A stretch of DNA of 64,000 bases from Dipteris shenzhenensis (lineage: Eukaryota), in assembly GCA_047967505.1 (NCBI GenBank), contig CM106538.1. One strand, 5' to 3'. Positions 1,945 to 59,715 of this stretch are shown piece by piece. Below the pieces are notes generated by a model that saw nothing but the letters and a program-made list of their open reading frames with translations, made no database searches and was not told the origin of the DNA. The position numbers and the translations under genes are program-made. The stretch's first letter is position 1; each line of letters starts with the position of its first letter.

Positions 1945-4033
1945 CACAGTTATGCTGAAACGTGTTTCCCACCATTTTCCCCCCAAAATGCCGTTTCAAA
2001 ACCTGTGTTTCTGTCTGGAAACGTTTCCCCAGACAGAAACAGCTGGAGAGATGTTTCGTGAAACCTTTTCCTAGGGGGAAACACACCGTTTCCCCCTGGT
2101 CTACACTCCAAAATCCTGAATCATCTCCATGCCTTACCTCCTTCAGCCCTCCTTCCACTCCTTCGGGATCTTCAGCCCTCCTTCAGCCTCCACTCCTTCA
2201 GCTCTCTCCTTCAGCCCTCCTTCAAAGTTCAGCCTCCACTCCTTCAGCCCAGTCTTTCAGCCCTCCTTCAGCCCCCTCTTTGAGCCCTCTATCAGAGCTC
2301 TCTTCCACTCCTTCAGCCCTCTCTTTCTACGTGTGGCCAATAAGTACGAGCCCGAGGGGGAAGCATCACAGACATGGAGGGAAGCACATTAGGGCTCTTG
2401 TACGAGTTTATGGACAAGATTGGAGAGGCCCTCAACAGAAACACTTCCCTATCGCCTGATAAGTAAGACTATGTATGTACTATTATCTATAGTCTATGAA
2501 TTTTGCATGCATAATGCATTCTAATTTCTTGTGGCATGATTTAGGGTTGAGTCCATCCGTGCTATATGGAATAAGCGGTGGAATTGGTTCCACCGCCCAA
2601 TCCATGCGGTGGCACATGTATTGCATCCGCTCTGGCGCAGTCAAGAGCAATATGAGAATGACGAGTTGGAGGAGGGGATGCAACAGTATCTACCAAATTG
2701 GACGGGTGGTGACTTGGAGATGCAACGAAGACTGGAGGATGAACTTCTATTGTTCCGCAATCACAGCCTCTCCTTTGGTTGACCTACGGCTAGGCTCCGA
2801 GAGACACAGTTGCAACCTGTCTCCTGGTGGGAGAAATATGGCAACTGTACTCCTACTTTGGTAAGAGTCTAAGAGACAAGTTCCAACGCCACTAGTTGGA
2901 GCTTAGTCGTTAAGTAATTTGAACTTTTATCTACTACAAATATGTTTAAAGCTATCAAGTTCCTGATACTTATCTCGGCTTAATTGGCTTATGGCAGAAA
3001 CGCCTTGCTATACGTGTTCTCTCACAGGACTGCAGTTCCGGTCCTTGTGAGAGGAACTGGAGCACTTGGGCCCTCTTTCACACAAAGAAGAGGAACAGAT
3101 TGAGCACGGCTCAATTGGAGCGGTTGATGTTTTGTCATTGCAACCTCCGTCTCCTTGAGTTCACCGCCGGCTGCCCCGAACCTCGCCAAGTGAATGTAGA
3201 CAAGGTGGACGTGGAGAAGATGGATGTCATACCAGATATCCCACGGGAGGAGCTGGACATATACACCATGTTGTATGAGGAGCTGTCAGCACCAACACAC
3301 CACACACGATCATACACTCAACCATCTGGAGATGGTGCTAGTACTTTAGTTGCACCCGATGGTCCTGATCCTGATGTTGATGATTCTTCTTCAGACAGTG
3401 ACACAGATGCCTCGAACTTATCTGAGGACGCAGAGGATGACGATGACGAGGAGCCCATGGATGATGCAGATGATCAATAGTCCTACTGCTTTTTTTTATA
3501 TCATCCATGAGTGCTTTTATTTTGAGTCTTGCATATCTCATGAGTCATGAGTCATGAATCATGATCATGAAATTTGTGGACCATGAATCATGATCATCTA
3601 TGGAGTCTGGACATTGAATACTTTCAAGTTTCAAGTTTCAAGTTTCAAGTTTCAACTTGTGTGCTAAGTTTAAACTTTTAAGTACTTCAAACTTCTAAAT
3701 TTCAGATTCTTGTAATGCCAAACTTGTTAGTCATGACTCATGATACATGTTGATTTCAGATTATTGAAGCATCATTCAAGAATTTAGAATCATAGAGGCA
3801 TGAATCATGAATGATGCATTGATGCTTGAAGGCTGAAGCCTGAAGCTTCAGCCTTCAAGTATAGATAATTGTAATTTATATTATGTATGATTTGCACTCT
3901 ATTGATAGTTATATTATGTATAAAAAATAAATTTTTATACATAAATTGTATCATATTGCCGTTTCTTCCGTTTCCGTTTCGGCGGAACCCGGAAACTCCG
4001 TTTCTTCCGTTTCCGTTTCGGCTGATAACTATG
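1945..4033 (+). mobile_element. Internally deleted hAT DNA transposon (C-terminal transposase with dimerisation domain)
   Basis: Imperfect TIRs CACAGTTATG..CTGAAAC (1945) and GTTTCGGCTGATAACTATG (ends 4033). Subterminal ccgtttc repeats at 3955-4020. Coding remnants RWNWFHRPIHAVAHVLHP..PVSWWEKYG, intron 2861-2997, then RLAIRVLSQDCSSGPCERNWS..HTKKRNRLSTAQLERL. Confidence 0.85.
2138..2325. repeat. Pyrimidine-rich ttcagccctc/ccactcc tandem repeats within the hAT element
   Basis: Repeated cttcagccctc units read directly. Confidence 0.8.
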
Positions 4034-18559: not shown

Positions 18560-20440
18560 AGCCAGGTATTTGCACCCTACTTGGGAAAGTTCATAACAGT
18601 GTTTCTGGATGATTTTTGCATTTATTCAAGCCGTGTGGATCACTTGAAAAGTTGAGGATTGCATTGAAAAGTATTGATGACGCAAAAGGTTGCCTTAATC
18701 TTGCAAAATGCCATTTGGTCAGGAAGAAGGTGGCTCTGTTAGGACATGTTATCTCAGAGGAATGTATAGAAATGGATCCTGAGAAGGTACAGGAAATCAT
18801 GGCCCTTCCACCACCTAGTAATGTCAGAGAGGTGAGGGGCATTTTGGGTAAAACAAAGTATTACCAATGCTTTGTTGATATGTTTTCTAAAAAGATGTAT
18901 CCTATAAATTTATTGACAAAGAAAAATGTATCTTTCCAATGGGGACTAGAGCAAGATGAGGCATTTGTTTGCTTAAGGAATGCATGATCCAAAGGCCAAT
19001 TATGCAGCCTCCTAGGTGGGAGGATGATTTCTATGTGAATCCAAGTGTGTCAACTCATTCAGTGGGAGCTATACTACTTCAAAAGTGTGAGCAACGACGC
19101 ATGCAACCAGTGTATTATGCAAGTCGGCAACTCACGGAGGCTGAGGAGAGGTACGGTGAGATGGAGAAAGAAGGTTTATCTTTGGTCTTTGCAGTGAAGA
19201 AGTTTAGGTTATACTTGCTACCTCACCCTTTTTTCTTCCTTATGTCTCAACCTGCTTTACAATTTTTGGTTCGCAAACCCAATCCTACTGGAAAGTTTGC
19301 TAAGTGGATTTGTGAGCTTCAAGAGTTCTCTTTCACTTTTATTACAGAAAGCACCACTAGAGCTTTTCTGGCAAATTTGCTTACAGGTAAGGAGGAAGAA
19401 GAAGTAACAAAGGCAAAGGAAGACTTAGATGAAGAGTTGGAGACCCCGCCAATAGCTTTCAAGCTGCATTTTAATGGAGCCTTTAGCCCTTCTAGGAAAT
19501 GTGGGGCTTGGGGGATAATTCTATTTGATCCAGAAGGAAAAGAGGTATGGAAGGGTAGGCAATTTCCTGAAGCAATATCAAATAATGTGCTGAGTACAAT
19601 GCATTGATCTATGGATTAGAATGTTGCCTAAAGGAAGGAGTGAAAGAGGTAGAGGTTAAAGGAGACTCTCAACTAGTCATTAGGCAAATGAAAGGTGTTT
19701 ATAAGGCACAGAGTCCTAATCTACAAGATCTTTATAAAAGAGCGATGGAGTTAAAGGAAGCTTTTGAGTTTTGCAAGTATGTGCATATTCAAAGAAAAGA
19801 TAATCATCAAGCTGATGAGATCGCTACTAAAGCTATGGCTTCTTTCACTAAAGTTACTCTTGCATTGATAGATACAGGTCTCCCAGATGCAACTTGTAAT
19901 CATTTCATTGTGAAATATAAAGAAATACCGAAAGGGGCGCCACGGTTGGCCAGAGCTCCAAGATGTTCAATATTACTTGGATGAAGGACATTTTCCTCAT
20001 GGATTGACCCCTCAACAAAAGCAGAGGCTCACAAGGAATGCTCGTCCTTATAGAATCCTTGGGGATGTTCTATACAAGCAAGGTAAAGATAAGGTTCTTA
20101 GGAGGATAATGAGCTTGGAAGAATCTAAAAGGATTATGGAGCTATGTCATGAATGTTCAGGTCACTTTGCTTCAGCTAGCACTACTTGAAAGATCCTTAA
20201 CACAGGGTATTATTGGCCCCGACTCAACAAATATATCCATGAGTGGTGCCGAAGTTTTGAGGTATGCCAAGCATATGGACGTAAGCAATTGGTTCCTGGG
20301 CCCTTGAATCCCATTCCAGCATATGGTCCATTTGAGAGGTGGGGGTTGGATTTTGTTGGCCTCCTTTCTTGTTCTTCACAAGGGAAGTATTAGGTATTAG
20401 TTGCAATTGATTATGCAACTAGATGGGTGGAAGCAAGTCC
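18560..20440 (+). mobile_element. Ty3/gypsy pol fragment with an additional RNase HI domain (Tat-type): RT, RH, aRH, integrase N-terminus
   Basis: LLGHVIS..DPEKVQEI; PVYYASRQL..EKEGL; LHFNGAFS..SNNV..ALIYGLE..VKGDSQLVIRQMKG..N..AD; CHE..GHF..GYYWP..WGLDFVG..IDYATRWVEA. Frameshifted. Confidence 0.9.
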
Positions 20441-20589
20441 ATTCTCAAATTGGACTTTACACAAATCCAAAAAATTTGAATAGTGTGTTTGTTACTTTAA
20501 TGATGAAACACTTTTGGTGCATTGTCAAAAAATAACTTTTCTTTTTTATACATAGTTGATCAAATGGTAGAATTTTAATATAGTTTGAC

Positions 20590-21130
20590 ATTAAGTTTTA
20601 GATATGCTCAATGCCCCACCCTCTTGATATATATATTTTCCTCCAAGATTTATACACCCCTTAAATGGACAATCATCAATAAGCCAGGTATTACTAGGAA
20701 AAATGGCAAGCAAGGGCTTAAACATGCATTCAAAATTTGGCTTGTCCGGTTGATATAACTTATTTAAGAGTGGTATGTAGCATTGCACTTGACCCATAAT
20801 TTTGTAGAATGTGTGCAAATCCTCAATAATTCTTATCAAATGAGCCACATTTGTACTTAATGTTGTTGACCATTTTTACACATGATAGTAGGAATGTTTT
20901 TATCGAAGCTATGCTTATATATTAATATAAAATCTTGGCAAAAGCTTTCAAGCCCATTTTTTAAGTTTCACAATATTAGGTCTTTATAGCTCGTCGGTGA
21001 GCTATTGTTTCAAGCTATTTATGCTTGGCTCAACCACGAATGAAATGATGCTTCTACTGCTTGCTTGCCTTTGTAACTTAACGACGGTGATCTATTGATC
21101 CAAGGTATTTATGATGAGATCTTGTCCTCT
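20590..21130 (-). pseudogene. Degenerate FCP1/NIF (HAD-family phosphatase-like) domain fragment
   Basis: PSNTWLIDDCPFKGCIN resembles the NIF motif NTLLIDDSPYKxxxN. Upstream RPNIVK and EDLHTF traces. Confidence 0.5.
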
Positions 21131-21970
21131 AATAAAACTAGCTCCGTGGTTTCCATTGAGTGTTTCCTATGTTTATGAAATATATTGCCTGGTTTTATTA
21201 TTATTTATACTTGCATGGTGATATGCAAGAATTATAACTAGCCACTAGTTATAAAATTGAGACATAAAAACACTTGAAAAACTTACAAACTTGCAAAAAA
21301 AATTACTCGCAAAATGTAAAAACCCCAAACATCCTAGTTGCTTAATAATCATGCGAAACATGTAGCTTGTCTACATACATCTGCAATGCACTATAGGAAT
21401 GTGTAAATGAGTTTTCATCATAATTCAATAGATATTTACAAAACTGCTTCTAAATTCATTGAAGTTTTAGGGCTTCTGACTTGATCTTTGGGATGCAATC
21501 TTGGACTTAGCAGTTTCTAGTCAATACTTTCTCAATCACATTGTCCATGCTCATCTAAGAATTTTTGGCAGCACATCTAATGAGAGTGCTCTCAATGAAA
21601 GTGGAACGGAAGAGGGTGAGAGAGAGGGAGAGCCAAAAGTGAGCCACACAAGTTTTGGTGGGTGCAGAACATCTTTTATGTCATCCATATATATATGTGT
21701 GTGTGTGTTTAAGTATTGTACATAACTGAGGTTAAGGCACAATGTCCTTTAACCCTCACAACCTTCCACTTAAAGTCTAATGTGTCTTTAAGGAAGATCA
21801 GCCAATGTACGGAAACATGGCTCAGAACTGTCAGTAAGGACTACAGAACTGTCAATTCAAAAAGGAATAAGATAATCTTTTGTCTGACTAACACGATTTT
21901 GCATTAAATATCTCCTTAGATTTTTTTTTGTTTACCAAAGATTCCGCATCTCTTTTGCCGACGTTTGCAG

Positions 21971-24953
21971 GCCTTTCATGAAGAATCCATCACTGAACTT
22001 GGTGATTGCAAGTTTTCAAAATATTCACATGGATACCGCCACACTTCCACGATTCATGTTATAAAACGACTATAAGATTGACAAACAAACTTCGCAACCT
22101 CAGAAGCACAAAAAATGGCCGATACTAGTGAGTCACTATCTCAGAAGAAGCGATTACACCATCTTCACATCGACTTAGAAGAACAATATGATCCAGTACA
22201 AAAAAAGGATACGGTGCTGAATGCTTAACAGCGGGAAAATATGAGAAGAGAAGGGCTTCAACATATTGACTTATGGTGCGATGGAAGCATATATCCAAAA
22301 TGTCAAGTAACAAACTCTACACCTCCATTTGACAATCCCACCACATTACTGAGGTTTGCCGGCGATGGACAAAATGGACTTCTTGGTTATATTTCAACAT
22401 AGTCTGCATTTGTGGAAACGTATAAAATGATGTACCTACAAGAAAAGGGGGCCAAGATGCAGGAGATAGCCATTCGTGCAAAATTGGAGCAGCAGTTGCA
22501 AAATGAAATTGAGGAGCATTCAAAGAGTAAAAAAGAGTTGATAAGAGCAAGAAAGAAGAGAATCGTACTTGGAGACAGACTATGTAGCAGGAAGATTAAA
22601 AACATTGCAAATTTGAAGGCTGGGACTGGTGGATGCAAGCGACGAATTCAGGAAGCAAGGTTAGATTGAAATTTATTATTTTGTATACTCAAAAAGGCTC
22701 TCAAATGACTATATCTATTTCGTCCCTTACCACAAAACAAGAATGGGGGTGTTGAATGATATAGGCATATTGTGTTGTTACTATAGGAAATTATTGGAGC
22801 CTGTAAAAGAAAATATGGATCCGAACCTTCTTCCTGTTAAACAAATGAAAGGATTGCTTTCTTGTGGTGTAGCAAAAGGTTTGATTGAGGAAAAAAAATA
22901 CAAAATAGTCAAACGCAATGTTGTAGAGGACTTTGTATCCAATAATCAAGTTGATGGCACTATAATCCAAGAGGCTCTTAATGTTAGTGGAGTTAGCAGG
23001 AAGGGATATAGTTCGATTTTCCATGCGATATCCTCAACTTTGAAAGATCAAAGGATTAAACGAGTTTTACTGCCAAATCCAGCAACCGTGTGGAGGATAA
23101 GAGGTCATTTGAATGAAAGTATAGATGAATTTATTGGGCAATATATCCATATTAAAGAAATATTTCATGGTGGTAAAGGAACCACTGTGTATGATCCTTG
23201 GAAAAATATATTTGTAGATCTACAACAACTTCAAAGAAGAATGGTCGAGTTTTATGGAATAACATTTGAGGAGTGCAAAGGCATTTTGAAATTTGTTATC
23301 AAACTGGATGAATGTGAGGTTGTAAAGGAAAAGAAAATGGAAAGAGTTACCATTACATTGATGAATGGAGCAATTGATACATCATTGACTGAAGCGAGTT
23401 CGAAGTATTTTAGTGTGCAGTCAGAGAAACACATATGGTGGTTAGGCTCGTTCCAGGTATGATCATTTTTTGTTTTGTACTTGATTTTGGTCATTGTTTT
23501 CAAATCTATTATAGTAAGACTTTTGTTTTCTATAATCTGGCAGGTGAAGATAGAAGACCATGAAACACTAGATTAGGTGTTTCACCACACAGGAATACCA
23601 AGAATAATCAAAAGACAAGTGAAGGCGAGAATCTCCATGTTGCAGGAAAAGGTGATTTTCAAGTAGAGTGGCACATGGCCGGGGATCTTAAAACACTTAA
23701 GTGCATGTATAACGTTAGTAAAGGAGGCAACTCAAAGTCTCCTTGTCTTTACTGCAAAGAATCAGCTCAAGTAATGGATTCAAAATGGTGGAAGAGAGCA
23801 CCTAATAGAGATAAAGTTGACCCTGACTTCAAGGCCATTCTGGACATTCCACTATGTAATGTTCACATCTGCACATTGCATGGTCTATGTCGAATTATTG
23901 AGAAATTGGTATTTTTATATATTGGATTTGCTTGGAAATTCCGTCCCGAAAAAAATAGAAAGGATGCTCTTCAAGCATTGGAAAAAGTGTTATCCGGTCT
24001 GCATGGAGGAGATGTTCAAATCACAAAGGATTTTAAAAAGTCTACCAATGGCAAGGAGGTACCAATCAAGCCCTCTATTGGTGGTGTTAAGGCAAGAAGA
24101 TTCTTGTCTCGACCCAAACACAGTAAGCAAGTAAGGCAAGGTAGAACAGTTTCAAAGATTAATTATGGATTGTGGAAGCAAGTCCATAATGCTGTGAAAG
24201 ATCATGAGGCAGATGGGGAAGCACGAAATAGGAAGGCAGAGGTGTGGAGGTCTCTTGATCAACTCTTCATGTTCTGTGACAAAGTAACATGGACAAAGAG
24301 TGATTACAAGAACTTTGAGGAGGCAATTAAACATTTTGGGAAGTTAATGAAAGACGCGTGGACAGCCTGCAATATAACTCACTACATGGTAAGGTTCTAT
24401 CTTCTTCTTTTACTTAAGTGTGATCCTCTTTTTTTTATTACTTACTATGCATTCTTATGTCTTACAGCATATCATCTACAACCACCTTCCCTATTTTGTC
24501 AAAAAGTATGGATGCCCAGCAATTTGGTCTACCCAAGGCATGGAGAAGTCTCACTACATGGCACGTAATGCATTTTTCAGACACACACAACACTATGGAG
24601 GGAGTCAAAAGGCAAATAGTCTAAAAGAAGTCTTCCAATGGTTTTACCGAGGCATACTACAGAGGCTGCATGCTAAAAGAAAAGTTGCTAGCTCCAAAAT
24701 CAAGCTTGCTTTTCTTCTAGCCCAAAAGCAAAGACGAAGACAAACTCTAGACAATTCAATGGTAGCAGAGAGACATAGACAATGGAGGGAATCGAAGATA
24801 TTTAGAAACCATAAATGGACAAGTAAACATGAATACAACTCATTTGTAACTTATTGGTGTTATGTCCACATGTTTTCAGACTCAATCAATAGAATTTTTT
24901 TTTGTGGAACAAGTGACTCTTGGTGTTATGCATCAAAAGTATTTCTTTTGTGA
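21971..24953 (+). pseudogene. RAG1/Transib-like DDE transposase, intron-containing and disrupted (exons ~21971-22659, 22787-23456, 23544-24388, 24468-~24953)
   Basis: Motifs in order: KFVIKLDE, HMAGDLK, SKSPCLYC, ICTLHGLCRI, THYM|HIIYNHLP, WSTQGMEKSH. These parallel RAG1 core D600, D708, CxxC, DALH, TNYFHKTLAHVP and WASEGNESGNK. GT-AG junctions keep the frame; several stops and one frameshift. Confidence 0.78.
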
Positions 24954-25246
24954 AACATATGATCTAAACGTAATACAATTTGTTCACAATTTCAATATAT
25001 TGTTTGTTTAATATTTAACAACACCACTCTATCTAAATGTACAAATCATTTCATCTTCAACTTATTGTTCATTTATACAAGATCATACCAGACATCAAAG
25101 ACTTTGTACAAATCAGTTTAACTTTAATATAATGTGTGGGAGTCAACTATTCCAAAGCAAAAACATTTCTCATCATCAAGGAAGAATTCCACAGGGCCAA
25201 AGATAGCAAAACAATGAGGTAGAAGTGAGAACTAAATCAGACATAG

Positions 25247-26880
25247 GAATTTGCAGCAAAATGCGATGGGGGACCATTTGGAAAATATAAAGCACTCTCC
25301 TCGCATTTTGTTGCAAATTCTCCAGTTCTGTTCATATGCATGTCAAATCAAACACTAGGTTCATCTCATTGATTCCTAGACAGTATGATTTGATATGCAA
25401 GAGAAAGGCTGGAGCTGAGTGAAGCTTTTCATGAGGAATGTGTCAACAACAGGAATTTGCAGCAAAATGCGATATGGGCTACTTAGAGATGTATAAACCA
25501 CTCTCCTCGCATTTTGTTGCAAATTTCTAGGTTCTATTCATATCCATCTCCAATCAAATTCTTGGGTGATTTGGTGATTTACCACATTCTTGGATAGTAT
25601 CAATTGAATATGTAACAAGAAGGGTGGAGCTGAGTGAAGACATTTGGACATAAAAAATCCAATGGATGGAAGAAATATATGTCAAAAAACATTGAAAACA
25701 ATCTAGAATTCTGACCTTTTTTTTCCTTTTCCATGCTGTTGGAGTTGCACTGGTGAATCTTCTGCTCTTTCACTAGCTTGAACTCTGCACTCTAGGTAAC
25801 CTGGAGATCTGGCAGTGGTAGTACTCTTCAGGTAGGTTGCAGTCTGGATGGAGTGTGCTGGGTAGGAAAGGATCAGAGAGAGAAGGAAATGGAAGATGCG
25901 AGGGTCCTGGCAGGGATGAAAGATTGGGAGGCAGGGGAGGGAAGAGTGGTTGTGGAATTGATTATGAAATCATGAATGGCACAAGTTCCAAGGCATAAAG
26001 TGTACCTTTCACACGTGCCAAATTTCAAACTCCAAGAGATCTGGGTCCCATCCACACGTGTGAAAAACAACTACATTCCACATGTGTGGGATTTAGTAGC
26101 TGCCTTATTTGTATTTTGCACTTATTTGTGGTATCCTGTCTCAGCCCTCTTGCCCTCCAATCTTTGCTCTCTTGCCTCCCTACCTCCATACTCTGCAACA
26201 TCAGCATCCTGACCAGCGGCACAGGTTCATCCCCAGCACAGGGTACTCATCAACAGCACAGCACATCCACAGATAGATTTCAGGTCAGTAATAATGGGCT
26301 CTTCCCTCAGTCTCTGCAATCTTCTTGCTTACCATAGAAACAATCCATCCTGCATGGAAATGCATAGACTCAATCCATATTTTATTTAGTTGTCAAGACA
26401 GAGAAATCACTGTAGGAATGCAGATCTTCAAGTGTGATATTTGCATGTGAGGGTAAAACTGTACTTATGGGTTCTTCCTTCAGTCTGTCCACACTTCTTG
26501 CCTTCCATAGACTCAATCCATCCTGCATGGACATGCAAACACCTTCAAATGACTGAAGGCATATTCCAGCATGCTCCCTCATGAATTTGCAAGAAAACGC
26601 GAGGAGAAGGCCTTAGGAATTTCAAACAGCCGAAATCGCGTTTTGTTGCAAATATTGAAACGTTGCTTCATCCACCCCTATCATTCTGGTTTTGTGACTT
26701 CCATAGCTAACCATGGCTGTACTCTTCTTGCATAAACTCCATTCATACTGTATTTAGTTGTAAAGACAGAGAACTCACTGTAGGAATGCACCAACATGTC
26801 ATTTCAGGAATTTGCAGGAAAACGCGATTTGGACCTGTTAAGAATTTCAAACTCCTCGTATCGCGTTTTATTGCAAATTT
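25247..26880. repeat. Four palindromic modules (20 bp inverted arms, 33-34 bp spacer)
   Basis: GAATTTGCA..AAAA(T/C)GCGA-N33/34-TCGC(A/G)TTTT.TTGCAAAT at 25247-25320, 25453-25526, 26583-26655 and 26808-26880. Confidence 0.9.
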
Positions 26881-26985
26881 TTCAATGTTGCTTCATCCAC
26901 CCCTGTGATTGCCTTTTTTTTTTCAAAACATGTTCTCCATGGCTGTAATCTCTTTCCATTGCTTTCTATGCAGTTTGTCAGAGTG

Positions 26986-28309
26986 ATGGCAAGAACCAAG
27001 TCAACTGCAAGGAAAGCTGGCAGGTAGATAAGGTTAAGATTGTTGAAGTAACCCACTCAAAGAACACCAGAGGGAAGACTGCTTATGAGAAGTCATTGAA
27101 GCAGCAAATAAAAGAAACAAAATCTGTTATAGATGTGGAGACTGGAAAGAGGGAGCTGCAGATACATAGAAGGTTGCAGGAGCTGGGCCCTAATATAGTT
27201 GTCCATATTGAGGATGAATTTTCAGTGAATGATTTTGACTTGACAAAACCATGCTTGGCAGCATTGGCTCATAAGAATGAGTATTGCTCAGATACTATCA
27301 TTCTTGCAATGCTCTAGTAAGTGTCTATTATTTTACATTTTTGGCAAAACAATCCTCCTTGTACCTCCTTTATACCCTACCCTAATTATTTTTTGGTCCT
27401 ATGCAGCATGATGAGAAGTTGGCTTCACCCCTCTATACAGCATACAGTCCATATTATTGATCCTGCCATTTCTTCTAAGTTAAGAGATGCAAAGGAAACT
27501 CCCATCAGTATTTCCAGCTGGTTCAGACACTGCAATTTTGAAGTAATTGATGTTTTGCTACTTCCATACCATAACAGGTATGTGGGTGACTACTTCTTTT
27601 AAGATTCTTCTTTAAGATTGAGAACTCTTGCAGCCTTTGATTTCCTAATGCTTTTTTCCTTATGCAGTGACCACTGGATTTTTGTTTCTATTGACATCCA
27701 CCAGTAGAAGCAATGCTTTATATTCAACTCTCTTAAAAACACACACAGAGAGCTGAAATTGTAAGTGTTGTGTGTGCTTTTTGAAGTTAAACTTCATTAT
27801 TTTGATATCATACTAACTAAATTATATATATTGCAGTTGCATTAGAAGGCTTCTAGATGCATTGGATCACTGTCCTCCTAATGTCTCTCTTTTGGATTCA
27901 ATAGAGCCAATAAATCTAGAGGTAAAAAATCGTTCCCTCTACTGATGTCTATTTCATGCTATGCCTTTGAACTTATTGAATAATTTTGTTTTGTTCAGAT
28001 GTTAACAGTTTCTAACATATCTTTCCAACTGTACAGACACCACAACAAGATGATTCTAGTAGCTGCGGATGGAGAGTGCTGATCAGTGCAAAATATCTAC
28101 TTTCAAGCTATTTTGAGAAAGAATAGCCAGACCTTGTAAGAAAAAATAATTTTCATTTAGCTTGAAGAAAATTCATAATGATACAAAGTGTTCTAAATTA
28201 TCATATGCCATTGCAGATGAAAGAAGATAGCTTCAGCTCAAACTATGTATATAATTTTAGAGCTCATACAATTTGGAGGTTTTTGAGCTATGCCTCCCCC
28301 AAACTGTAC
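26986..28309 (+). pseudogene. Ulp1/peptidase C48 (SUMO-protease-like) gene with H3-tail-like N-terminus; six exons, disrupted
   Basis: Exons ~26986-27316, 27407-27577, 27668-27760, 27837-27921, ~28037-28135, ~28218-28309. Spliced motifs YCSDTII..LLLPYHNSDHWIFVSID..FNSL..PQQDDSSSCGWRV..FRAH. Starts MARTKSTARKAG with a 1-nt frameshift before the main frame; two in-frame stops. Confidence 0.82.
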
Positions 28310-28557
28310 CCTGGATTTGCTATGAGACTTTTCTCTTTCTTGGAACTTCCCTTTGAACTATGATTTGCCCCTTTGCACACTTAAGGCTTCATCTTACTTG
28401 TTGTCATCCATAAACTTCCATCTAATCTCATTGACCAACAAGTTACCCATAACATCATCAAACTTTAGTACTCCACCCTCACTCCACCAGGTGCAGAGTT
28501 AAACATCAGCTATACAAAAGTCTCTACATCAAAATTCAGCTTTTGACCTTGAAGCTT

Positions 28558-29105
28558 ACTGAAAATAATATTGAATTCATTCAAGTGAGAAGCACTGGAG
28601 ACCCCTTCTTCATTTACAGCTCAAACAACCTCTTCATGAGATAAACTTTATTAGGCAGTTTCCTTCTCATAAGTGACACATAATTTCTTTCACAATTCTT
28701 CCTTAGTCTGATCATTTACTATTGTGAAATAATTTAACTTTGTAAGATGAAATCTAACAGTAGACTTTGCTAATGTATCATACTCATTCCAATCATCCTC
28801 AGACATAGCTGTAGACTTAGCTCTAATTCCGTGCTGAAAATAATATTGAATTCGTTCAAGTGAGAAGCAATGGAGATCCCTCCTTCATTTACAGCTCAAA
28901 CAACCTCTTCATGAGGTAAAATTTATTAGGTAGTTTTCTTCTCATAAGTGGCACATAATTTCTTTCGCAATTCTTCCGTAGTCTGATTATTTACTATTGT
29001 GAAATAATTTAACTCTATAAGATGAAGTCTAACAATAGACTTTGCTAATGCATTCTACTCATTCCAATCATCCTCAGACATAGCTGTAAGCTTAGCTCTA
29101 ATCCT
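28558..29105. repeat. Tandem duplication of ~275 bp inside copia gag
   Basis: ctgaaaataatattgaattc..cagacatagctgta..ttagctctaat occurs twice (~28559 and ~28834). Confidence 0.9.
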
Positions 29106-32100
29106 TTCCAAGGATTTGATCTTATTCTTTTGAACAAGCATGTCCCTTCCATAAAGGAAAAATTTTCCCATCAAACTTTTTAATATTGAAAAAATCATTT
29201 TCAGACATGGAAGAGGATGCCATGATGCAAATAAAGCAAAATCCCAAATGTTAGTGCCTGCAAGAAAGAATCACACCAAAAAGTCAGGTGCACCAAATTA
29301 TGTATGCCACAAGGGAAGGAAATATCATAAAACCTCAAAGGCTCAAAGCATTAAAAAATGCAACTGACTCATGTGTATATATTGTGCATCCATATGAGCA
29401 AATCTGGCCCAAAAGAAAATGTCAAACTGCAATGACAAAACAATGATAAACGCAATGCCAATAAGAACCAAATGCCTCAAGCATAAACACCGTCCATGGG
29501 CATAAGCATCAATAATGTCTCATCCAAGAGAGCATAGTACTATCAATGCATTAATTGCAATGTGTCAAAGATGTCTCAGCATAAAATAACATCTGTGTAC
29601 TAAACGTCCATCAATAAAGCATCCCACAAGGCAATTTGAACCTATTAGCGCATCCAACAAGAATCGCAATGCATCGAAATGGCCTGTAAAGCATCCACTG
29701 CAACCCAATGCAAACCACAAATAAGAGCACATGGCTCAGATTGCAACCAAAGTGACCTGCATAAGGTATGTTTCAAAATCATGGGCCCACAACAATGGTC
29801 GCTACTGAAAATAAAATCTCAAATGTCTCAAAACCACTGTAATCTTTGAATACACGGCATTAATGACATGACCTACACTTTCTATGACTCAAAGAATACT
29901 TCTAGAAATCACTCTAGATGTGAGGTGAACCCAAGTTAAAGCTTGCGATTGACCTGTAAATGAAACCTTAGAAGCCTAAGGTTCAATAAAAAAATGCCAC
30001 TGTAAAAAATCAAAGGTTGGAACCTTTGAGTGGAATTTTGACAGAGAAACAAACGATTCGACGTCTCAAAGAGATGGAACTTCTCCAAATCTCCATAGAA
30101 TCATGCAAGAGTTGACAGATAGGGGTTTTTAGGCCTTTGGAATGAAATAAAATAGACGATTTTGATAATCGTGGTCCCAAACATGGAGTCCAACACACAG
30201 ATTGAAAAATATTTTAACAAACACATACGTTTGTAAACACCATCGGAGTGCGAATGATGAGCAACACAGATATTTTAAGACCTCCTGAGTCCACCGAAAC
30301 TAACAGATTTGCGAATGGTTGCTTTAAACTTGAGTTCCAACACATTGGTAGAAAAACAATAAAGCAAAGACAATGAGTCAGAAATCCAACGAAATGATCC
30401 CAGATTTAAGAATGAAGGGGTTTTCAAACTCTCAAAGTGCAATGGACACCCAAAGCAAGCAATGGTTGCCTCTGCGAGTCATTCAAGACTCTCAGTCGTT
30501 GAAAGAAACAGGGAAATCATCGAAAAACATCTTTTTGCTCCAAAACCACATGTAGGCTTGTAAATAACCACTCAAAGACTTCCATAAACCACTTGCAGGC
30601 TTCTACAAGGTTCCAATACCACCTGGAAAGCTCCAAAAAGCACCCACAGGCTTGCTCTGTCTTCCCACAGAGCTATAGGAGTAGAGTCCAAGCTCCAAGC
30701 ACACACATGGGCTTAGCTAGATCACCCACAAGCATCAGATAGACCACTCGAGCTTTGATACCAATTGAGAATGCTCTCAACGAAAGCAGAATGGAAGAGG
30801 GTGAGAGAAAGGGAGAACCAAAAGAGAGTCACATAAGTTTTGGTGGGTACAAAACACCCTAATCTTCTATGTCATCCATATATATATACATACGGTGTGT
30901 GTGTTTGAGTATTGTACATAACCAAGATTAAGGGACACCAGCCTTTAATCCCCACATCTAATACCATGAAGAAAAGTCATGATCCGAGAAGTCAAAGGAT
31001 ATAACAAGACAGGAAGTGCTTGAGCAAGAAACCAAGAAAAGAGCAACGTATGCAAGAAAAGAAAAGGCCTGAATAGTCGATCATATTCCAGAGACCCACG
31101 GATGTCCTTATAAAGATTACAAACTAGTAAAGTGAATATGTAGTCCATTGTAGCAACTAATCCAGACTTATACAAAGTAAGTGTTCATCACTAAGCTAAT
31201 ATTTGGAGTTAACCAATACCTTTGAATAAATCTATCACACTCTGATGGTGCAATGAGGAAGGAAGGATTCCATGGAATGGGACCAAACACAAAGTTGATC
31301 CCTAAAGTGATTGATGATAATGTCAATGCACACAATCCAAAGGACACAAGTGGTAGGAATAGAGTTGAGAGAAAGAGAGAATTTATTGAGTCTTAACTTA
31401 CTAGATGAAGCTAGAGTAATGGCCATTCTACCTTCAACATAGCTTTGGTCTTGATTTACTCGATGAAGCTCAAGTAACGTCCATCCTGTCTGCTTATCCT
31501 TTGCATTGAATGACTTTGTTTGATCAAAAAATATAAGGCTTCCCTAGTGAATTAATAGTTGTTGCTCTTCAAGAATCCAACGTGGCACTATTTTGTCAAG
31601 AACATGGGTGTTGTATGAGGCAAAACTAGAATCTATAAATGTTCAAAATGCAAGGGCAATCCAAGAGGCACAAATGAGTTTTGCAAAGAACTGTGAAGAA
31701 GTGAGAATAGAGAATGCAAGGGAAAAAATTGCTTTAGCACAAAGATTGGAAGACGTCCAAAGGAGGAGAGAGGAAGCTATGCGGCCACCCACAATTTGAA
31801 TGTAACTAAAACAATTTCGCAACACAAAGAGATAACCAAAGCATATAGTGCAATGAACGTAGAGAATGAGAAAATTCAAAAAGGAATCTCTTGCTCATGA
31901 ATTGACAACTGTATGAAAAGAAAAGAAGCCACATGATAAATAAACTAGACAATTCCTAAATGAGTATGCCTATCTTGTAGATATTTTAAGATGGTATTAG
32001 TGTTCATAATATAAATCAACTTTAAGAGATTCGGCATGTGGAAAAAATAAAATTTAAGAGATTGGACATGTGGAACAAATAAAATTTACACATAGTTAAT

Positions 32101-32788: not shown

Positions 32789-35464
32789 CTAAGTGTAGAG
32801 AGGGCAATGTGGGAGATGGGATACAACACCACTAGTGCTTGAAAGGGCACAAGAGGCAAGAGGGCAATGGTCTGAGAATTTTTGGCCACCCCACCAATCA
32901 AGGCCTTGGCCACGAAACCCCATTGTCAGACTCAAGAATACACCCATGATTGCAGTGCCTGCATCTAATGCAGCCGATAGCACATAGTTGTAGCGCTTCC
33001 ACCAATCTTTCCGATATCGTAAGATATAGAAGTTGAAGACCATGCCCACCACAAACCAAGATGTGTAGTTGATAGTTCCTGCAGCTGGCATCCAACCCAC
33101 GGCCCCGAGCAACACAGGAACATTTATGAGCTTGATCCAAGGTGCAGCTCGGGGGAAGGCTTTGGCCAACAACCACACCGCCACAGGACCCACTAGCCCA
33201 AAAATTAGCACCCAATACATGAGATTCTTGTAAGGACCTTGATTTCCAAAAGTCCTACTAGGGCCCAACACCCCCCATACTATGGTGGTGTCAAAGGCAA
33301 CTACATCCCAAGGGCAAGTCCATGGACTTGAGGTGTCAAGCTTTCCGTCCACGTTGCACATGTGGGGTATCTTATACAACCACCATGCAGTACCCAGGTC
33401 CACTGTCCCTGCGACTACGGTACCTATCACCTGCAATATCCTTAAGTTAGGTGAGCTTTGGAAAGATTTATGTATTAGTGGTAAGCTCTTTAAGAAGCAA
33501 TGTAACTCACCTGGACCAAGAACATGCTCCTAGGAGGGATTTTCATATAATGTCCGAGCTTGAAATCTACCAAGAAATAGATGGCTTGCTGCATGCTCAT
33601 GTGTCCAAACAACTTCAGACCCTGGTTTGCGATCGGATTCCCAGGAAACAGGTACCCTCCGACGAATTGCATCACCACCATCAATGACGGCGTCTGCCAC
33701 CACACACACCCCTACATCGTTACGGGTTTACCTATACACGTCAATCAAGCGAAATCGAGAGAAACCATTTCGACTTATATACCTACCAGATTTGTGGTAG
33801 CTGCGATCACCCCGATGGGTAGCGTCAGGGCTGCAGCTATGGAGCAGCCCAGCACAACTCCCCACCATGGAATCCCTACTTGAGCCTTGAACTGCACACA
33901 AATCACGATAACCCCCACCAAGCACATCACCAAGAGCCCCAAAAACCATCTGTCTGGGATATCTGGGTAGTGGCTCATCAATCGAGTATGCACATCCGCA
34001 CGCCGCTTCCCCGCGTAGTGCTGCAAGGTTTCCCTGATGTTCAGAAGACCAGGATTAGAAGCGTTGTTTGACGCTGCAAATTATCTTCACGAAAAGGTAC
34101 CACTAAACAAAGATTGATACCAGCTACTTACGCGCCGTGAAAGAAGACGAAATGAGTGATCGTAGCCAATGGAGCTGCGAACAATAAGGCGAGGCTAATT
34201 GCAAAGAAGCTACTCAAGTACAAGTCTCCTTGTGTGAAATCTCGTTGTAAAGCAGCTGTAACGTTATATACACCCCCGGCTGCCGTGAACAGTCCCGATG
34301 ATATGATTGGAAAGTTCTGAGCTTTGTAGGCGTTGCTCCAGTAATACGTAAGGGGCGTTACTATGTAGATTATGGCTCCAGCTCCTACCGCCATGTTAAC
34401 GAGGACCGATGCAGGGTACACAAGTGGGCTACCTAAGAACGAGGAAACCGCAGCCCAGTCTAGTGTGAATGCCCCGACTCCGAGTCCTCTGTAGCCGGAA
34501 CCTATCTGTTGGGCCTTTACGGACCTCGGCCAAATCAAACATGCCAGTGACATGCAAGTAAGGAACGGCATAAAATAGCCTGGGAGAACGTAGTATGCAA
34601 AGCTCACGATCGTCATGATGTAGAAGCTTTGAATCCGCGACAGGCCCGATCTTCCCTTGTTTTCATCTGTTTCATGCAACGTCCTGGACATCCCACCATA
34701 TATAATTTACCTTCATTCCGTCCAAAACTGGGAGCTCTCAGAAAATTGAAGGGCACTCAGACTCTTACCTGAATACAGTCACCTGCACCATGGTAGTTGG
34801 CCACCACATGTGTGCAGGATCAATCAACTGCTTTCGCATTAAGCCAGCCCAACCATATCCAATCAACTGCAAAATTTATCTTCAGCAAGAGTGAGCTTTG
34901 CAACGCTATAGCAAGTGTGCAATCGGAGTGCTTCTAGTAGATACGTACCTGACTTGAAAGCACGAGAACGAGAGCTACAGCGAAAGTAATCCGTAAGTGG
35001 TAAAATAGCTTGATAAGGTTCACCATCTCAACGGCAAAAGCCCCTCCATAACCAAATGCATTCCCTGCATTGGCGAAGATAGTGATAAGCACATGTTCCT
35101 TGACACTGAAAGGTCCTGGATTTAGAGAAAAGCCCCAATCGCGGAAGGGGATCCGGACCACGGTTTTGGGAAGAGCATATGCCAAGAACTGGCCCATAGG
35201 AAGGGCTGCCAAAGTGGCTGAGAGTGCGGTAATCTTCATGGGTTCACTACGATACTGGAAGAACTGGTTGACAAACGCTAGCCCAGCGCAAGAGGCCAGG
35301 CCAAGAACCCACATTCGGACTGTCCATACAGGGAGTGTTGGATCATCAGTAGTAGCTACTGTCATGGCGACTTCCTCAACTGGTGAGACCTCGTCGTCTG
35401 AAAAGGCAACTTTTTCCTGCTGGCCGGTTTTCCCGAGTGGAATCATCTCGACGTTTATCGTCAT
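32789..35464 (-). CDS. OPT: Oligopeptide transporter (OPT family); exons 35464-34949, 34866-34769, 34683-34132, 34033-33787, 33693-33511, 33430-32789; 745 aa
   Basis: Signature motifs SPVEEV, DDPTLPVWT.RMW, NPGPFSVKEH, KLGHYMKIPPR and YNYVLSAALDAG. Canonical GT-AG introns give an open 2238-nt CDS. Confidence 0.95.
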
Positions 35465-38400
35465 GATAACCCGTTGGAAGCAAATATCCAGAGGCGTCTA
35501 ATACAGGCAGCAGCAGGATGCGTCACAAGCAGAGCTCTCCCTTGGCGTTGGAGAACAAGTATGATGAATCGAAATCCATGGCACAGGGTTTCTCTTGGGG
35601 TCTATCGTAGAAGAAAGAGTTCCCAAGGATAAACGTAACACAAGGACGGAGAGCAGGAGGGGAAAAGATCTCTAGGATCGATGCAATAAGTGTAGACGGA
35701 GAAGAGCGATGGGGCTGAGAGGGATCGCGATGGCGATGTAGTAACAGAGCAGAATCCAGATGCACGTTTCTTTGACTGCTTTTCCAGCAACCTGTCCACG
35801 CTCAATTCCAAAGGCATTTTTACCTTTGACAAGACCTTTCATTTGGCATTTTGGAGGGAGTAAATTTTGGAAATCTAGGAGGGTTTAAGTGGCGTGCCTT
35901 GGAGATCCAAAATCAAAAAGAAGATGAACGGGATGCCTAGTAGGAAAAAAGAGGGGGGGGGGGCGGGAGAGAGAGATGACTCACCAAGAACTAAAGAGGA
36001 ATGATACTAAAAGTGGCAACAAATTATACAATTCAAAAAAATAAACAAATCCAAACTTGCAAAATTTTTATTTATATTTTCATATTAGATTTTTCATATT
36101 TTCAATAAAGACCTTCAAAATTTTCAACTTAAGGTTTTTTATGTGTTTAGGAAAATGGTTTCTCTCATCGTTGGTTTTTTTCTAAATAAATAGGCCTAAT
36201 TTATGAAGGGGGTGGTCAGCCCTATCAAAAAATAGATCAACATTCTTTGGAGGTTTGGTCCCATGCAAGATGAAACATCTCTAGCCTCGCTAGAAAAGTC
36301 GATGTGAACGGAGGTTTAGCTTGTGAATTGGAGGTGCAAAACTTATCTCCTTCCATTCGACCATTCTCCTCGTATGCAACTTTTGGGTGGGGTCCAAAGA
36401 GATCTACGCTCGCGTCTTCATGATGGAGTGTATACCTTCTAAGTAGGTGTCATTCTCTCTACACATTTGAAGTTTGTCTCAACCACTGTACCTTGCTAGG
36501 CCTTTCCTCTGAGTCTATCCCGTCTATACATCATCTCTCTGCATCAACACGTAAGAAAGCAATGGATTGGAGCTGTGCTTACAGCGATGTAACCATCAAA
36601 ACATCCATCCATGTGACAAGAACTTCTAAACTTATGTTTAAAGAAGAGACTCTTGGCACTCCCTCCATAGAAGAAACCGTGTTAACTCTTCAACCTTTCA
36701 TGGCCCCTGACATGCTATCTATATGAGCATCTAGAGTTAGTGCAATGTACTTCTAAAAAAATATCGTAAAATGGATCATCTATCCCTATATAACATGCTA
36801 AATCTAGAATTTCAAATATCTAAAACAGCTCTCTCGACTTTAAAAATTTGAAACTATCAAACAGACACACCATTTTCAGCTAGAATCAATTGGAAAACAT
36901 TGTGATTTTCGAAAGAAAATTCATCTATACAAAAAGGTATGTCTCCTCCCAACAAGTGAGATAGTGAGGTAGAGAAAGAAAGGAGGCAGCGCATGAGATA
37001 TTGAGGGAGAGAGGCTGAGGGGAAAGAGAGAAAGGAGGGAAAGCACTGAGTGCTGAGGGAGAGAGAAAGGAGATTGAGGAGGGAGCGAGAAATGAGATTT
37101 AAGAGATGGCATTTGAGCAAAGGAAGAGAGGGCGAGGGAGGTGAACAAAAGGGGGGGGGGAGAGAGGACGTATGGATAGAGGAAAGGGGGGCAGTTGAGT
37201 ACAGGAGGAGAAGACAAAACTCGTTTCACGAAGATTCCAGACTTTGTCGAAAGGGGCATTCACAACCTTTATTAATCATTCGCAGGTGGATAACTCACTA
37301 ATACTAATTAGGAATTTTTGAACATCATGGGCTCATCATGGGGACCTATTTAGCAAGCAGTGTAAAAAACAAAGAGCTAGTTTTTTTTTTGGGGCAAATT
37401 TTTGACACCCTCGAGGACTTTGGGGCAAAAATATGGCTCAAAAGTAAAAAACTATCACCAAAGATTTGACTAAGATAAGATTTTATAGCCATTTCATGAT
37501 ACTATTAAACATACTTTTCCAAGGAGGAGTGTTGAAAAATATACAAGCAATAGGTTAGCATTCTACTTGTCCTCCTTTGATCAACTATGCTAGGGATAGC
37601 TTAGCAGAGTACGGCTCTAGAAATTTTAATTGCAAATCCCTTTTTAATCCATTAAGTAGAAAAACTTGGCAAAATGCTTTATCAGTTGCTAATTAGGCTC
37701 GTGCGTCACCATATCATAGAAATAGAAAGCTCACCTAGCTATTAAATCAAGAATCTTCTAAATTAATGGAAATTTTAGAAGTGCACATAGTTTCACAAGA
37801 AGTTAGCAAAGTCTCTAATTGGACGTAGTGTCTGTATCTTGATTAGCAATGTCTTCCAGGTCACCCACTAGCAATTACAAGAATTCCATGCAAGCATTTA
37901 ACACACGCACCCTCCTTTTAATAACGACACGTATTGAAATATTAAGGCACAAAAACAACTCACCATGAATAAATTAAAGTCATATCATCATATCATCATG
38001 GTTGCGTTCTACACTAAGAGATCTTTCCATATGCATTTACTACTTCAAATTTCGACAATGCATGCAAAACTTACATGATTTTGAGACATTTTCAGCATAT
38101 GTTTTTTTTTTGGGGGTTTAACCCCCTTTTTAGGATATTATGTAAAATATGCCAAAATCATAAGATCTTGCATATTTTGTAAAGGATATGGTTTATGCTT
38201 TGTAAATTTTCATATTTCCCCTTATGTATTTAAGACTTTTGTAGAAGCATGCATATTCTACACTTGAGTGTAGTAGTATAATACATATTGAGTTGAAGAG
38301 GGGCAATGACACTCGGGTCGGAATCAATCTAGGAGTCAGTGTTCACTGAAAACTGAGGTCTAATGTTAGGTGGATGAATGGCTCAAAACCTTTAAAATTT

Positions 38401-58169: not shown

Positions 58170-59715
58170 TAAGAACATCGGGCTTTGAATTCCCAAATAC
58201 ACTCCTAGCTCTAAACCTAGTTGATAGAGAGTCAATGCTATTGTCATTTTGCTGGCCAGGGACATTGACTGCTGCCGTCAATGCCATACCTTGAAAATTG
58301 GTTACAAAGGCATTGAGGGCAACCATGTGGTTCACCAAAATGACCTTGTTAGCATTGCCATTGATGTCAGCATGACCAATCACTCGTGACAAGGCCTTGC
58401 ACTTTAGGAGGTCATCAATGCCATGTGGAGAAAACGTTTTGTGAATAACCACAAAGCACCCTTTTACTTAGCCAAGGTAATGTGCTAGTGAGTGATTTGG
58501 GCTGAAGCTATTGTGAGCAAGGCATTGCCGAGATGAGAATAGGTCGACCTCAAATGCCTCCTACAATAGTCCAACATTACATTGGAATTCCGTTAAAGCA
58601 AAATTATCCCAAGAAATTCAAAGCTCATAGTTTCTTACCACTATGGAGTCATCATGCTCAATCCCTTCCTCTTTGCCAATGAGGATAGATTCAGAGGCCT
58701 CCTGTTATCCCGGATGAGATGTTGAGGCTTCTTTTGGAACATCAGGTAGATCGGAGTAGATTGATGTCGATCAAACAGGCCTCATATGCACCATTGCGGG
58801 TTTTGGAATTTTTGAGCTCCTTACACGATGTCGAACACATTTGCCTTCTGTGCCACAGTGAGATTCTTTACTAAATTGCTCAAAAATGACCATTATACAC
58901 AAAAATTTATCTGATAGCATGCATTTGAACATAATAGTGAATGAAAATATTAATGCCAACAACAATTAAAGTTACAAAATACAATGACAGTATAAAATAA
59001 ATTTTGTAAAAGAACACAAAATTGGGCACTGTATAAAAATTATATCTGTATTCATATAAAATAAAAGCTCTATACAATAAGGCTTTAGAGCCTTTCTCTC
59101 TTCTCTAAAACACTGAGAACATTGGGCTTTGAATTCCCAAATACACTCCTAGCTCTAAACCTAGTCGATAGAGAGTCAACGCTATTGTCATTTTGTTGGC
59201 CAGGGACATGGCTACTACCGTCAATGCCATACCTTGAAAATTGGTTCCAAAAGCATTGAGGGAAGCCATGCGGTTCACTTGAATGACCTTGTTAGCATTG
59301 CCATTGATGTCAGCATAAACAATCACTCGTGACAAGGCCTTGCACTTTAGGAGTCATCAGTGCCATGTGGAGAAAATGTTTTGTGGATAACCACAAAGCA
59401 CCCTTTTGCTTAGCCAAGGTAATGTGCTAGTGAGTGATCTCGGCCGACCCTAGTGTGAACAAGGCATTGCCGAGATGAGAATAGGTCGACCTCAAATGCC
59501 TCCTCTAATAGTCCAACATTACATTAGAATTCCGGTAAAGCAAAATTATACCAAGAAATTCAAAACTCATAGTTTCTTACCACTATGGAGTCTTCACATG
59601 TACTCAATCCCTTCCTCTTTGTCAATGAGGATGGATCCAGAGGCCTCCTGCTATCCGGAGGTGAGATGTTGAGGCTTCTTTTGGAACATCATGTAGGTCA
59701 GAGTAGATTGATGTC
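58170..59715. repeat. Direct duplication of ~600 bp (~58170-58768 and ~59116-59714)
   Basis: gggctttgaattcccaaatacactcctagc..gagtagattgatgtc is present in both copies with scattered substitutions. Confidence 0.92.

Follow-up and report, generated by a model that had tools for sequence, protein, structure and literature searches.

We analyse here a stretch of 64,000 nucleotides from Dipteris shenzhenensis (contig CM106538.1 of assembly GCA_047967505.1), which we call the window, and within it a segment of 6494 bp on the plus strand that runs from position 21811 to position 28304. The depth of matching contigs and the ends of matching reads identify this segment as a discrete repeat unit, a decayed copy of a high-copy family. 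We consider it probable that the segment is a dead copy of a cut-and-paste DNA transposon that carries a transposase of RAG1/Transib architecture, a passenger gene with a histone H3-like and an Ulp1-like protease part, and palindromes borne by the element itself. An earlier note on this DNA had proposed a mobile block of about 6.5 kb at the same coordinates, with two co-oriented, intron-containing and decayed genes; both proposals are upheld by the results below, since the coordinates coincide with a step in depth, with loose read ends and with a TGTAC duplication, and since both genes have GT-AG exons, in-frame stops and frameshifts.

The region from 20500 to 29500 was compared, at 80% likeness, with contigs from two DNA data sets of one organism (X2 and X3), with a small set of contigs from another organism (X1), and with raw RNA reads (X21). 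The quantity we report, summed contig depth, is not the same as copy number. Upstream of the element, between 20500 and 21402, summed depth is 22-54 in X2 and 2-34 in X3; from 21403 to 21704 and beyond it climbs about 1000-fold or more, to 1.5e5 in X2 and 3.4e4 in X3 at 21704-22004. Over the transposase gene it stands at 2-3.6e5 in X2 and up to 5.6e5 in X3; over the spacer between the genes (25015-26820) at 2-9e4 and 1.3-8.7e4; and from 27122 to 28325 at 1.6-2.4e5 and 0.9-2.1e5. The final interval, 28025-28325, retains 1.6e5 in X2 and 9.5e4 in X3, and the interval that follows it, 28326-28626, has 312 and 419. The two gene halves are thus similarly deep (1-5e5), with the spacer at 2-9e4, and depth drops to background solely at the ends of the block. 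We therefore conclude that the family is very abundant.

The RNA reads locate these ends to the base. Four reads match from 21811 onward and carry foreign sequence before it, and three match up to 28304 and carry foreign sequence after it, so that other copies, lying in other contexts, share the same end bases. Directly outside lie two copies of TGTAC, at 21806..21810 on the left and at 28305..28309 on the right, which form a 5-bp target-site duplication. The left copy adjoins the loose ends of the four RNA reads; at the right copy lie the loose ends of the other three, along with loose ends of X1 contigs before 28309 and 28312. The element itself begins GGAAAC... and ends ...CCAAAC. Inside its 5' end there are two direct copies of CAGAACTGTCA (21823..21854, plus strand), a motif that has 3 matches in the window where 1.9 are expected and that is not significant alone. 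The termini and the length of the duplication, which the earlier note had left to be defined, can thus be given for this one locus, without terminal inverted repeats. Two further candidates at the flanks were set aside. The only paralogue of the left flank within the window, at 30766-30956, was considered as an empty site, and it ends 50 bp before the insertion point. The X1 loose ends before 28309 and 28312 read ...CAATGTTCCGTG(CCT), and their faint likeness to the left flank, ...CAATGTAC, is too weak to count.

The first gene, at 22115..24956 on the plus strand, is a transposase pseudogene, delimited by tblastn matches of full-length relatives (which cover 22145-24842), by an alignment of relatives (A2), by its translations and by a predicted RAG1/Transib-type fold. 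Its exons lie at 22115-22659, 22787-23456, 23544-24388 and 24468 to about 24956, and all of their borders are GT-AG. The reading frame is interrupted by stops at 22226, 22400 and 23574 and by the loss of 1 nt near 23621; an additional C follows 23621 in 1+7+4 contigs that derive from other copies. At the gene's 3' terminus, contigs of other copies (5 in X2 and 8 in X3) run from sequence like 24860-24886 straight onto 24931; therefore, the present copy seems to bear a local duplication of about 45 nt (24887-24930).

Three acidic residues on the plus strand are candidates for a catalytic triad. The first Asp (KLDE, 23307..23309) falls in the nearly invariant column D404 of A2 and, in the model of a relative described below, on strand 1 of an RNase H-like sheet; the second (HMAGDLKTL, 23684..23686) falls among the nearly invariant columns H497 and D501-L505; and the candidate Glu (QGMEKSH, 24543..24545) is kept in those rows of A2 that reach the region. 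Between the second Asp and the Glu are a CxxC motif (23744-23755, with Cys at 23744 and 23753), invariant in a closer alignment, A3, and an H..C..H motif (23864-23881) in the nearly invariant columns H580, C582 and H585 of A2. The motifs ER and QSE are likewise nearly invariant in A2.

An exhaustive search returned 208 relatives of this transposase at E<=1e-3, mostly gene fragments, and a word-indexed search returned 18 longer relatives of 490-900 aa. Among 83 aligned members, for which 25 of the 43 matched Pfam families were listed, PF12940 (RAG1) is the sole family of transposase type; it matches 2 of the 83, with a best E of 0.0032, below the cut-off. A second and more diverged fragment of the same transposase family is found in the window at 53274-53948 on the minus strand; it holds only the N-terminal 170-200 residues or so, and is supported by tblastn at E 2.7e-14 with P0151 and 1.9e-10 with P0162.

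Fold carries the assignment of the transposase. We built an AlphaFold2 (AF2) model of one relative, P0131, from an alignment of 83 rows that included the window's exons, and obtained a mean predicted local distance difference test (pLDDT) of 73.4 and a predicted template modelling score (pTM) of 0.67. Strands and helices in this model follow one another as in an RNase H-like fold; strand 1 bears the first Asp, and the second comes directly after strand 4. Foldseek against the PDB gave 49 matches at E<=1e-3, the best at 2e-11, and all 36 listed rows down to E 4e-5 are RAG1, BbRAGL or HzTransib; Hermes comes next, at 2.9e-3. VIA-align over 48,161 chains ranks RAG1 first, with Z 19.8 (368 residues aligned at a root-mean-square deviation of 4.2), followed by the amphioxus RAGL protein BbRAGL (18.2), HzTransib of Helicoverpa (14.9) and the P element (11.6), with the rest at 6.5 or less. 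The aligned ranges are 97-523 of the model and 506-978 of RAG1, and Glu507 of the model falls at about the residue that we take to be E962 of RAG1. A language-model atlas has RAG1_ZnC2/ZnH2 as its top clusters, with a score of 0.97 and a low recognition value for the query. The RAG1-like transposase of the earlier note thus stands on its fold, for which RAG1, RAGL and Transib are the sole strong matches, and not on sequence statistics.

The second gene lies downstream in the same orientation, with exons at 26986-27316, 27407-27577, 27668-27760, 27837-27921 and 28037-28126 (plus strand) whose borders are GT-AG and whose phases agree. It too is decayed, with a stop at 27705 and a break of frame at 27022. 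Its exons at 27407..28126 very probably encode a clan-CE, Ulp1-like protease, to judge by motifs in the proper order, sub-threshold matches and splice sites. The His box, ..LLLPYHN.DHWIFVSID.., places its His at 27672, and the Cys box, TPQQDDSSSCGW, places Gln at 28043 and Cys at 28064. The exon with the His box matches Peptidase_C48 (PF02902) at E 0.044 and the ElaD/SseL-like family PF22102 at E 0.028, both below the cut-off, and the exon with the Cys box matches a single PDB chain (E 0.59), aligned on QQDS.SCG.W. These statistics are weak because the exons are short and were searched singly, not as a joined sequence. When exons 2 and 3 were read through the intron, with X at stops, the Pfam score did not rise and the PDB returned nothing; the best atlas match of the 59-aa protease exon is an FBA cluster at 0.83, below a useful level. 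Upstream of the catalytic exons, 27023..27316 (plus strand) forms a non-catalytic N-terminal protease exon (VDKVKIVEV...ILAML) that is 75-85% identical to P0168, P0169 and P0170 and has no match among longer proteins.

This gene begins at 26986..27022 (plus strand) with MARTKSTARKAG, of which 12 residues are left in the window and which agrees with canonical H3, in what we take to be its sequence, at 9 of the first 10 residues. A 20-aa H3-tail query had no match in the PDB. In the present copy MARTKSTARKAG is out of frame with the next exon. In P0168, which is 75% identical over the N-terminal protease exon, the same open reading frame (ORF) contains ...FEDSMLVAAHAHRVTLMVKDF... upstream and in frame. 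This stretch matches Pfam Histone (PF00125) over the last 30 or so residues of the fold at E 1.4e-4, below the cut-off, and phmmer aligns it to about residues 103-132 of H3 in 152 PDB chains (best E 0.039), of which the 60 listed are all H3 or of H3 type. Contigs of X1 part from the window on both sides of 27022: by hand translation, one runs past 27022 into ..KGPGLAATAA, which is like an H3 tail, and another enters 27022 from ..LLIPPTRKLK, which matches the linker ..LLIPSTRKSK of P0168. Taken together, the fusion in P0168, the X1 contigs and the break of frame indicate that MARTKSTARKAG is the stump of a whole H3-like domain with a deletion junction after 27022, so that the present copy would have lost its H3 core by internal deletion. 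In intact copies, a single protein most likely comprises an H3-like domain, a linker and an Ulp1-like protease. The chromatin-directed, H3-mimicking protease of the earlier note accordingly keeps its H3-like link to the protease and loses its short mimic, MARTKSTARKAG being the remnant of a complete H3-like domain.

In order to see which second genes accompany such transposases elsewhere, we turn to a scan of metagenome contigs with alignment A3, which yielded 18 loci that are 32-100% identical to the query P0151. At 7 of the 18 (L001, L002, L004, L007, L009, L013 and L014) a convergent gene of about 400-630 aa, ORF2, lies downstream of the transposase on the minus strand; near its C-terminus is a conserved block that reads ..IYHN.LS...FKTL..LGG...EK..LVEK... 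No Pfam family matches ORF2, and AF2 predicts chiefly helix and disorder for it, at pLDDT 48.9; given this low-confidence, largely helical model and the absence of a Pfam family, ORF2 was rejected as a RAG2-like partner. No homologue of ORF2 was found inside the window's element. Elsewhere in the window, at 59096-59448 on the minus strand, there are weak but mutually consistent tblastn matches (E 0.2-0.5) to the C-terminal part of ORF2 (L013 and L002), which may be a decayed remnant of that gene or may be chance.

Two other loci, L008 and L012, have a co-oriented H3-like gene about 0.1-0.4 kb past the transposase. These genes match Pfam Histone at E 5.6e-26 (L008, with one in-frame stop) and 7.3e-34 (L012), show 64% mutual identity, have in common a long loop 1 and an extension at the C-terminus, and give slightly stronger matches to CENP-A-type chains (3e-28) than to canonical H3 (about 1e-26). 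In L012 a further ORF (2714-2858, plus strand) follows the H3-like gene; its opening, MVRVKKTPTRTN..., resembles an H3 tail, the contig ends before the ORF does, and it may be a second histone-like gene of that element. The remaining 9 loci are too short or are without a recognisable second gene. In a maximum-likelihood tree built quickly from 32 rows of the exon-3 region (matches covering fewer than 170 query residues being left out), the window's transposase lies inside a clade that holds all 7 ORF2 loci, with an SH-like approximate likelihood ratio test value (SH-aLRT) of 99, and L008 and L012 lie in another clade (SH-aLRT 98). Linkage of H3-like genes to this family of transposases is thus seen in two or more separate lineages, Ulp1 is confined to the family of the window, and the distribution of second genes across the loci indicates that the accessory gene is modular.

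The spacer between the two genes contains four structured palindromes, as the earlier note had claimed. Palindromes 1 and 2 (25247-25320 and 25451-25528) lie within tandem units of about 206 bp, and palindromes 3 and 4 (26585-26653 and 26809-26879) within tandem units of about 225 bp that are inverted relative to the first pair. In all four the arms measure 18-22 nt and the loops 31-34 nt, and the loops of pairs 1/2 and 3/4 show complementarity. The arm motif occurs 8 times in the 64 kb, always in these palindromes, where 0.04 occurrences are expected and 0 of 100 shuffles reach 8; the folding z-scores run from -4.6 to -6.1, and for each palindrome 0 of 200 shuffles are as stable. The arms read ACGCGA/TCGCGT in pair 3/4 versus ATGCGA/TCGCAT in pair 1/2, a change of the CpG-to-TpG type that hits both arms and keeps the pairing. 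Rfam gave only sub-threshold, hairpin-like matches to the palindromes. Some other copies join 25526 to about 26664 (3 contigs of X2 and 2 of X3), so the number of palindrome units varies among copies.

Should these palindromes be regarded as a working part of the element, or as a nested non-autonomous insertion, akin to a miniature inverted-repeat transposable element, or a locus for small-RNA hairpins? The two inverted pairs bracket about 1.05 kb, much as the ends of a small element would, depth is lower there, and the middle is absent from some copies; weak microRNA-precursor-like scores (for MIR8001, 29 bits where the gathering score is 90) fit a hairpin locus. Against these readings, the rest of the 64 kb contains no copy of the motif, L001 (5009-5257) and L013 (5051-5291) have palindrome arrays of their own, with an ACGCGA/TCGCGT-type core, that adjoin the start of the second gene, and the region is without RNA reads in X21. 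We regard both of these alternatives as rather unlikely. The arrays of L001 and L013 make palindrome arrays look like a recurring part of such elements; no such array is present in nine further regions searched.

Several observations weigh against the reading of the segment as one Transib-like transposon with its own protease gene, and we collect them here. With regard to the ends, the TGTAC duplication is known from one locus; the best inverted alignment of the 5' and 3' ends is equalled by 262 of 500 shuffles, and an inverted-repeat scan of 20300-29600 found no terminal pair; and the CAC heptamer (consensus CACAATG) is absent from both ends, although inverted repeats and heptamer may have been lost through decay of the present copy. 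With regard to the transposase, Pfam finds no family in the window's transposase ORFs or in 15 long relatives, phmmer of the exon-3 ORF against the PDB gives one irrelevant match (E 1.7), and profile A1 against PDB sequences gives three, at E about 0.5. The modelled protein, P0131, is only 26-31% identical to the window and is not the window's own broken protein, and, because no CMC/CACTA structure is among the fold matches, the fold match alone cannot separate Transib from the CMC (CACTA/Mirage/Chapaev) superfamily. With regard to the second gene, the Ulp1 call consists of two sub-threshold matches plus motifs, and in ..FNSL.. the window has Asn at 27726 where Ulp1 proteases have Asp. The linkage of the two genes in other copies is deduced from depth and common termini rather than from a single contig that contains the two; coverage by RNA reads is low, with reads on either strand, and no spliced joint is among those listed. 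No match to Ulp1 better than E 0.17 occurs at any of the 18 loci, and all 7 informative loci of the window's own clade have the convergent ORF2 instead. Finally, the functions that we assign to the H3-protease protein and to the palindromes are wholly inferred.

Some of these observations would be expected if the transposase belonged to CMC or to an unnamed sister superfamily, with RAG1 merely the nearest solved fold. CACTA/CMC elements, too, transpose by cut and paste in plants and combine several spliced genes with subterminal repeats; RepeatMasker files Transib under CMC. The missing heptamer and inverted repeats, the RAG1 Pfam matches that remain sub-threshold in 2 of 83 members, and the Plavaka (0.92) and Transposase_21 (0.91) clusters that the atlas lists lower down would fit such a placement. 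On the other hand, CACTA makes a duplication of 3 bp, and ours is of 5 bp at the element's ends; the RAG1 match spans about 370 residues, including the zinc-binding insertion; and Transposase_21 and Plavaka are matched neither in the window's ORFs, nor in 15 long relatives, nor among the 25 families listed of the 43 matched by the 83 members. Neither a Transposase_21-type transposase, nor CACTA termini, nor a duplication of 2-3 bp was found. We therefore think a CMC placement unlikely, and we file the transposase as RAG1/Transib-like on its predicted RAG1-core fold and its 5-bp duplication, while two features that define Transib, sequence similarity and terminal inverted repeats with a CAC heptamer, were not found. 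Kapitonov and Jurka (PMC1131882) describe Transib as unique among eukaryotic superfamilies in making 5-bp duplications, and they give mostly 5 bp for the duplications made by RAG-mediated transposition.

Less likely still, in our view, is a chance composite, in which a Transib-like fragment lies beside an unrelated Ulp1 element (for example, a MULE or CACTA relic; MULE, Mutator-like element) and the palindromes come from a third element. The earlier note took a general lack of Ulp1 at homologous loci as the sign of such a juxtaposition, and Ulp1 is indeed found at 0 of the 18 loci, the closest relatives bearing ORF2; but these loci are only distant relatives of the window's element, at most 57% identical. 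A composite would also agree with a spacer that is 3-10 times shallower than the genes, with the copies that skip 25526-26664 (3+2 contigs), and with the want of inverted repeats to tie both ends. It is opposed by the nearly equal depth of the two halves, by steps to background that occur only at 21811 and 28304, where the loose read ends and TGTAC also lie, by the absence of any MULE or CACTA transposase family from the ORFs of the block, and by the H3-like genes that accompany the transposase family in two other lineages. Thus, we retain a single transposon, and, with Ulp1 at none of the 18 loci, we regard the protease as a lineage-specific passenger and not as a conserved partner.

It is very improbable that MARTKSTARKAG is a free-standing histone-tail mimic and that its adjacency to H3-like sequence in relatives is a coincidence: the present copy does keep the tail only, at the first ATG after an acceptor-like site, but tail and protease exon are in different reading frames here, the X1 contigs extend it into more H3-like tail, and P0168 joins the C-terminus of H3 in frame to the same exon.

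The surroundings of the element are those of plant-like nuclear DNA built of nested mobile-element debris. Upstream, at 18960-20393, lies a reverse transcriptase-RNase H-integrase fragment of gypsy order, and the window also contains a hAT fragment. Short minus-strand ORFs that flank the element resemble copia gag by inspection and have no Pfam match. The earlier note was therefore right that the block is foreign to its surroundings, as the depth steps show, and less so in calling those surroundings copia, given the gypsy-order sequence upstream and gag-like ORFs that Pfam does not recognise. Direct repeats at 21581-21760 and 30766-30956, 80.6% identical, enclose both the element and the gag-like ORFs and probably represent the long terminal repeats of a short retroelement that served as host; the transposon would have entered it at a distance of about 50 bp from the left repeat. 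The flanking gag-like region also holds a tandem duplication of 269 bp (28559-28827 and 28834-29102, 92% identical). The sole evident host gene near the element is an OPT oligopeptide-transporter gene at 32792-35497 on the minus strand, with three exon-sized ORFs (Pfam OPT at E 1e-29, 3e-29 and 2e-25).

How does this element compare with known systems? It is like Transib, RAG1 and ProtoRAG in that its predicted fold matches the RAG1 core, BbRAGL and HzTransib over some 330-380 residues, in its candidate DDE (Asp-Asp-Glu) triad with a CxxC...H..C..H insertion, and in its 5-bp duplication, which PMC1131882 gives as a hallmark. It differs from Transib and RAG1 in having no CACAATG-type heptamer, no detectable inverted repeats and no significant sequence match, and in its plant host, its introns and a long coiled-coil N-terminal region. 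Whereas the second gene of ProtoRAG-type elements is convergent and RAG2-like, with a kelch propeller and with or without PHD, that of the window is co-oriented, and the partner is an H3-like-protease fusion (in relatives, ORF2).

By analogy of organisation, the nearest precedent is the Ulp1-carrying MULEs of the VANDAL/Kaonashi kind (Kaonashi/KI-VANDAL, and MULEs of melon and rice), which are likewise plant DNA transposons with a captured second ORF of Ulp1 type. PMC13317346 describes VANDAL accessory proteins that recognise short, repeated non-coding motifs of their own family, counteract silencing and cause hypomethylation. Unlike those elements, ours has a RAG1/Transib and not a MuDR fold, its protease is H3-fused, and its repeated motifs are hairpin palindromes. 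The CryptonF and CryptonS elements of oomycetes also carry an extra peptidase gene of C48/Ulp1 type (PMC3212892), but they use a tyrosine recombinase, and no histone-like part is reported for them.

Transib was first described as absent from plants (PMC1131882). A 2022 letter counts 39 plant Transib-like proteins, in a passage that describes no elements (PMC9435367), and a 2021 survey recovered no more than 35 Transib transposases in all (bioRxiv 10.1101/2021.09.26.461848). In the literature searched we found no description of a Transib-like element with an Ulp1 or histone gene, nor of a transposon-borne H3-like/Ulp1 fusion. Beyond these counts of plant proteins, the present analysis provides an element with defined limits and a 5-bp duplication, together with a gene model, accessory genes and evidence that the family is very abundant.

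The mechanism that we have in mind is as follows. The family, highly abundant in one sequenced plant at least, would encode a DDE enzyme, with an RNase H-like core and a putative zinc-binding CxxC...H..C..H insertion, that cuts out and inserts the unit in the manner of Transib and RAG, leaving a 5-bp duplication upon insertion. The co-oriented downstream passenger gene would, in intact copies, encode the H3-like domain fused to the Ulp1-like cysteine protease. The H3-like part may tether the protease on chromatin, by incorporation together with H4 or by binding of H3 partners, and the protease may strip SUMO-type modifiers from silencing factors, such that epigenetic silencing of the element is delayed. 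The palindromes, with their CGCG-type core upstream of the passenger gene, might serve as its promoter or as protein-binding sites for it.

A transposon-borne H3-like/Ulp1 fusion would offer a direct handle on chromatin manipulation by DNA transposons, and it adds a point of comparison for the question of why RAG1-type transposases gain chromatin-linked partners. A broader conjecture, which we put forward tentatively and would sooner expect to fail than to hold, is that, among plants and other eukaryotes, transposons of a RAG1/Transib-fold lineage repeatedly have an H3 variant of their own, which in this family is fused to a SUMO-type protease, and that the element thereby writes itself into chromatin. 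If this were true, the element would bring either a desilencing enzyme or a variant nucleosome to its own copies or to their vicinity, which could help to explain its very high copy number, and it would constitute an independent, histone-based counterpart to the dependence of RAG1 on the reading of the H3 tail by RAG2.

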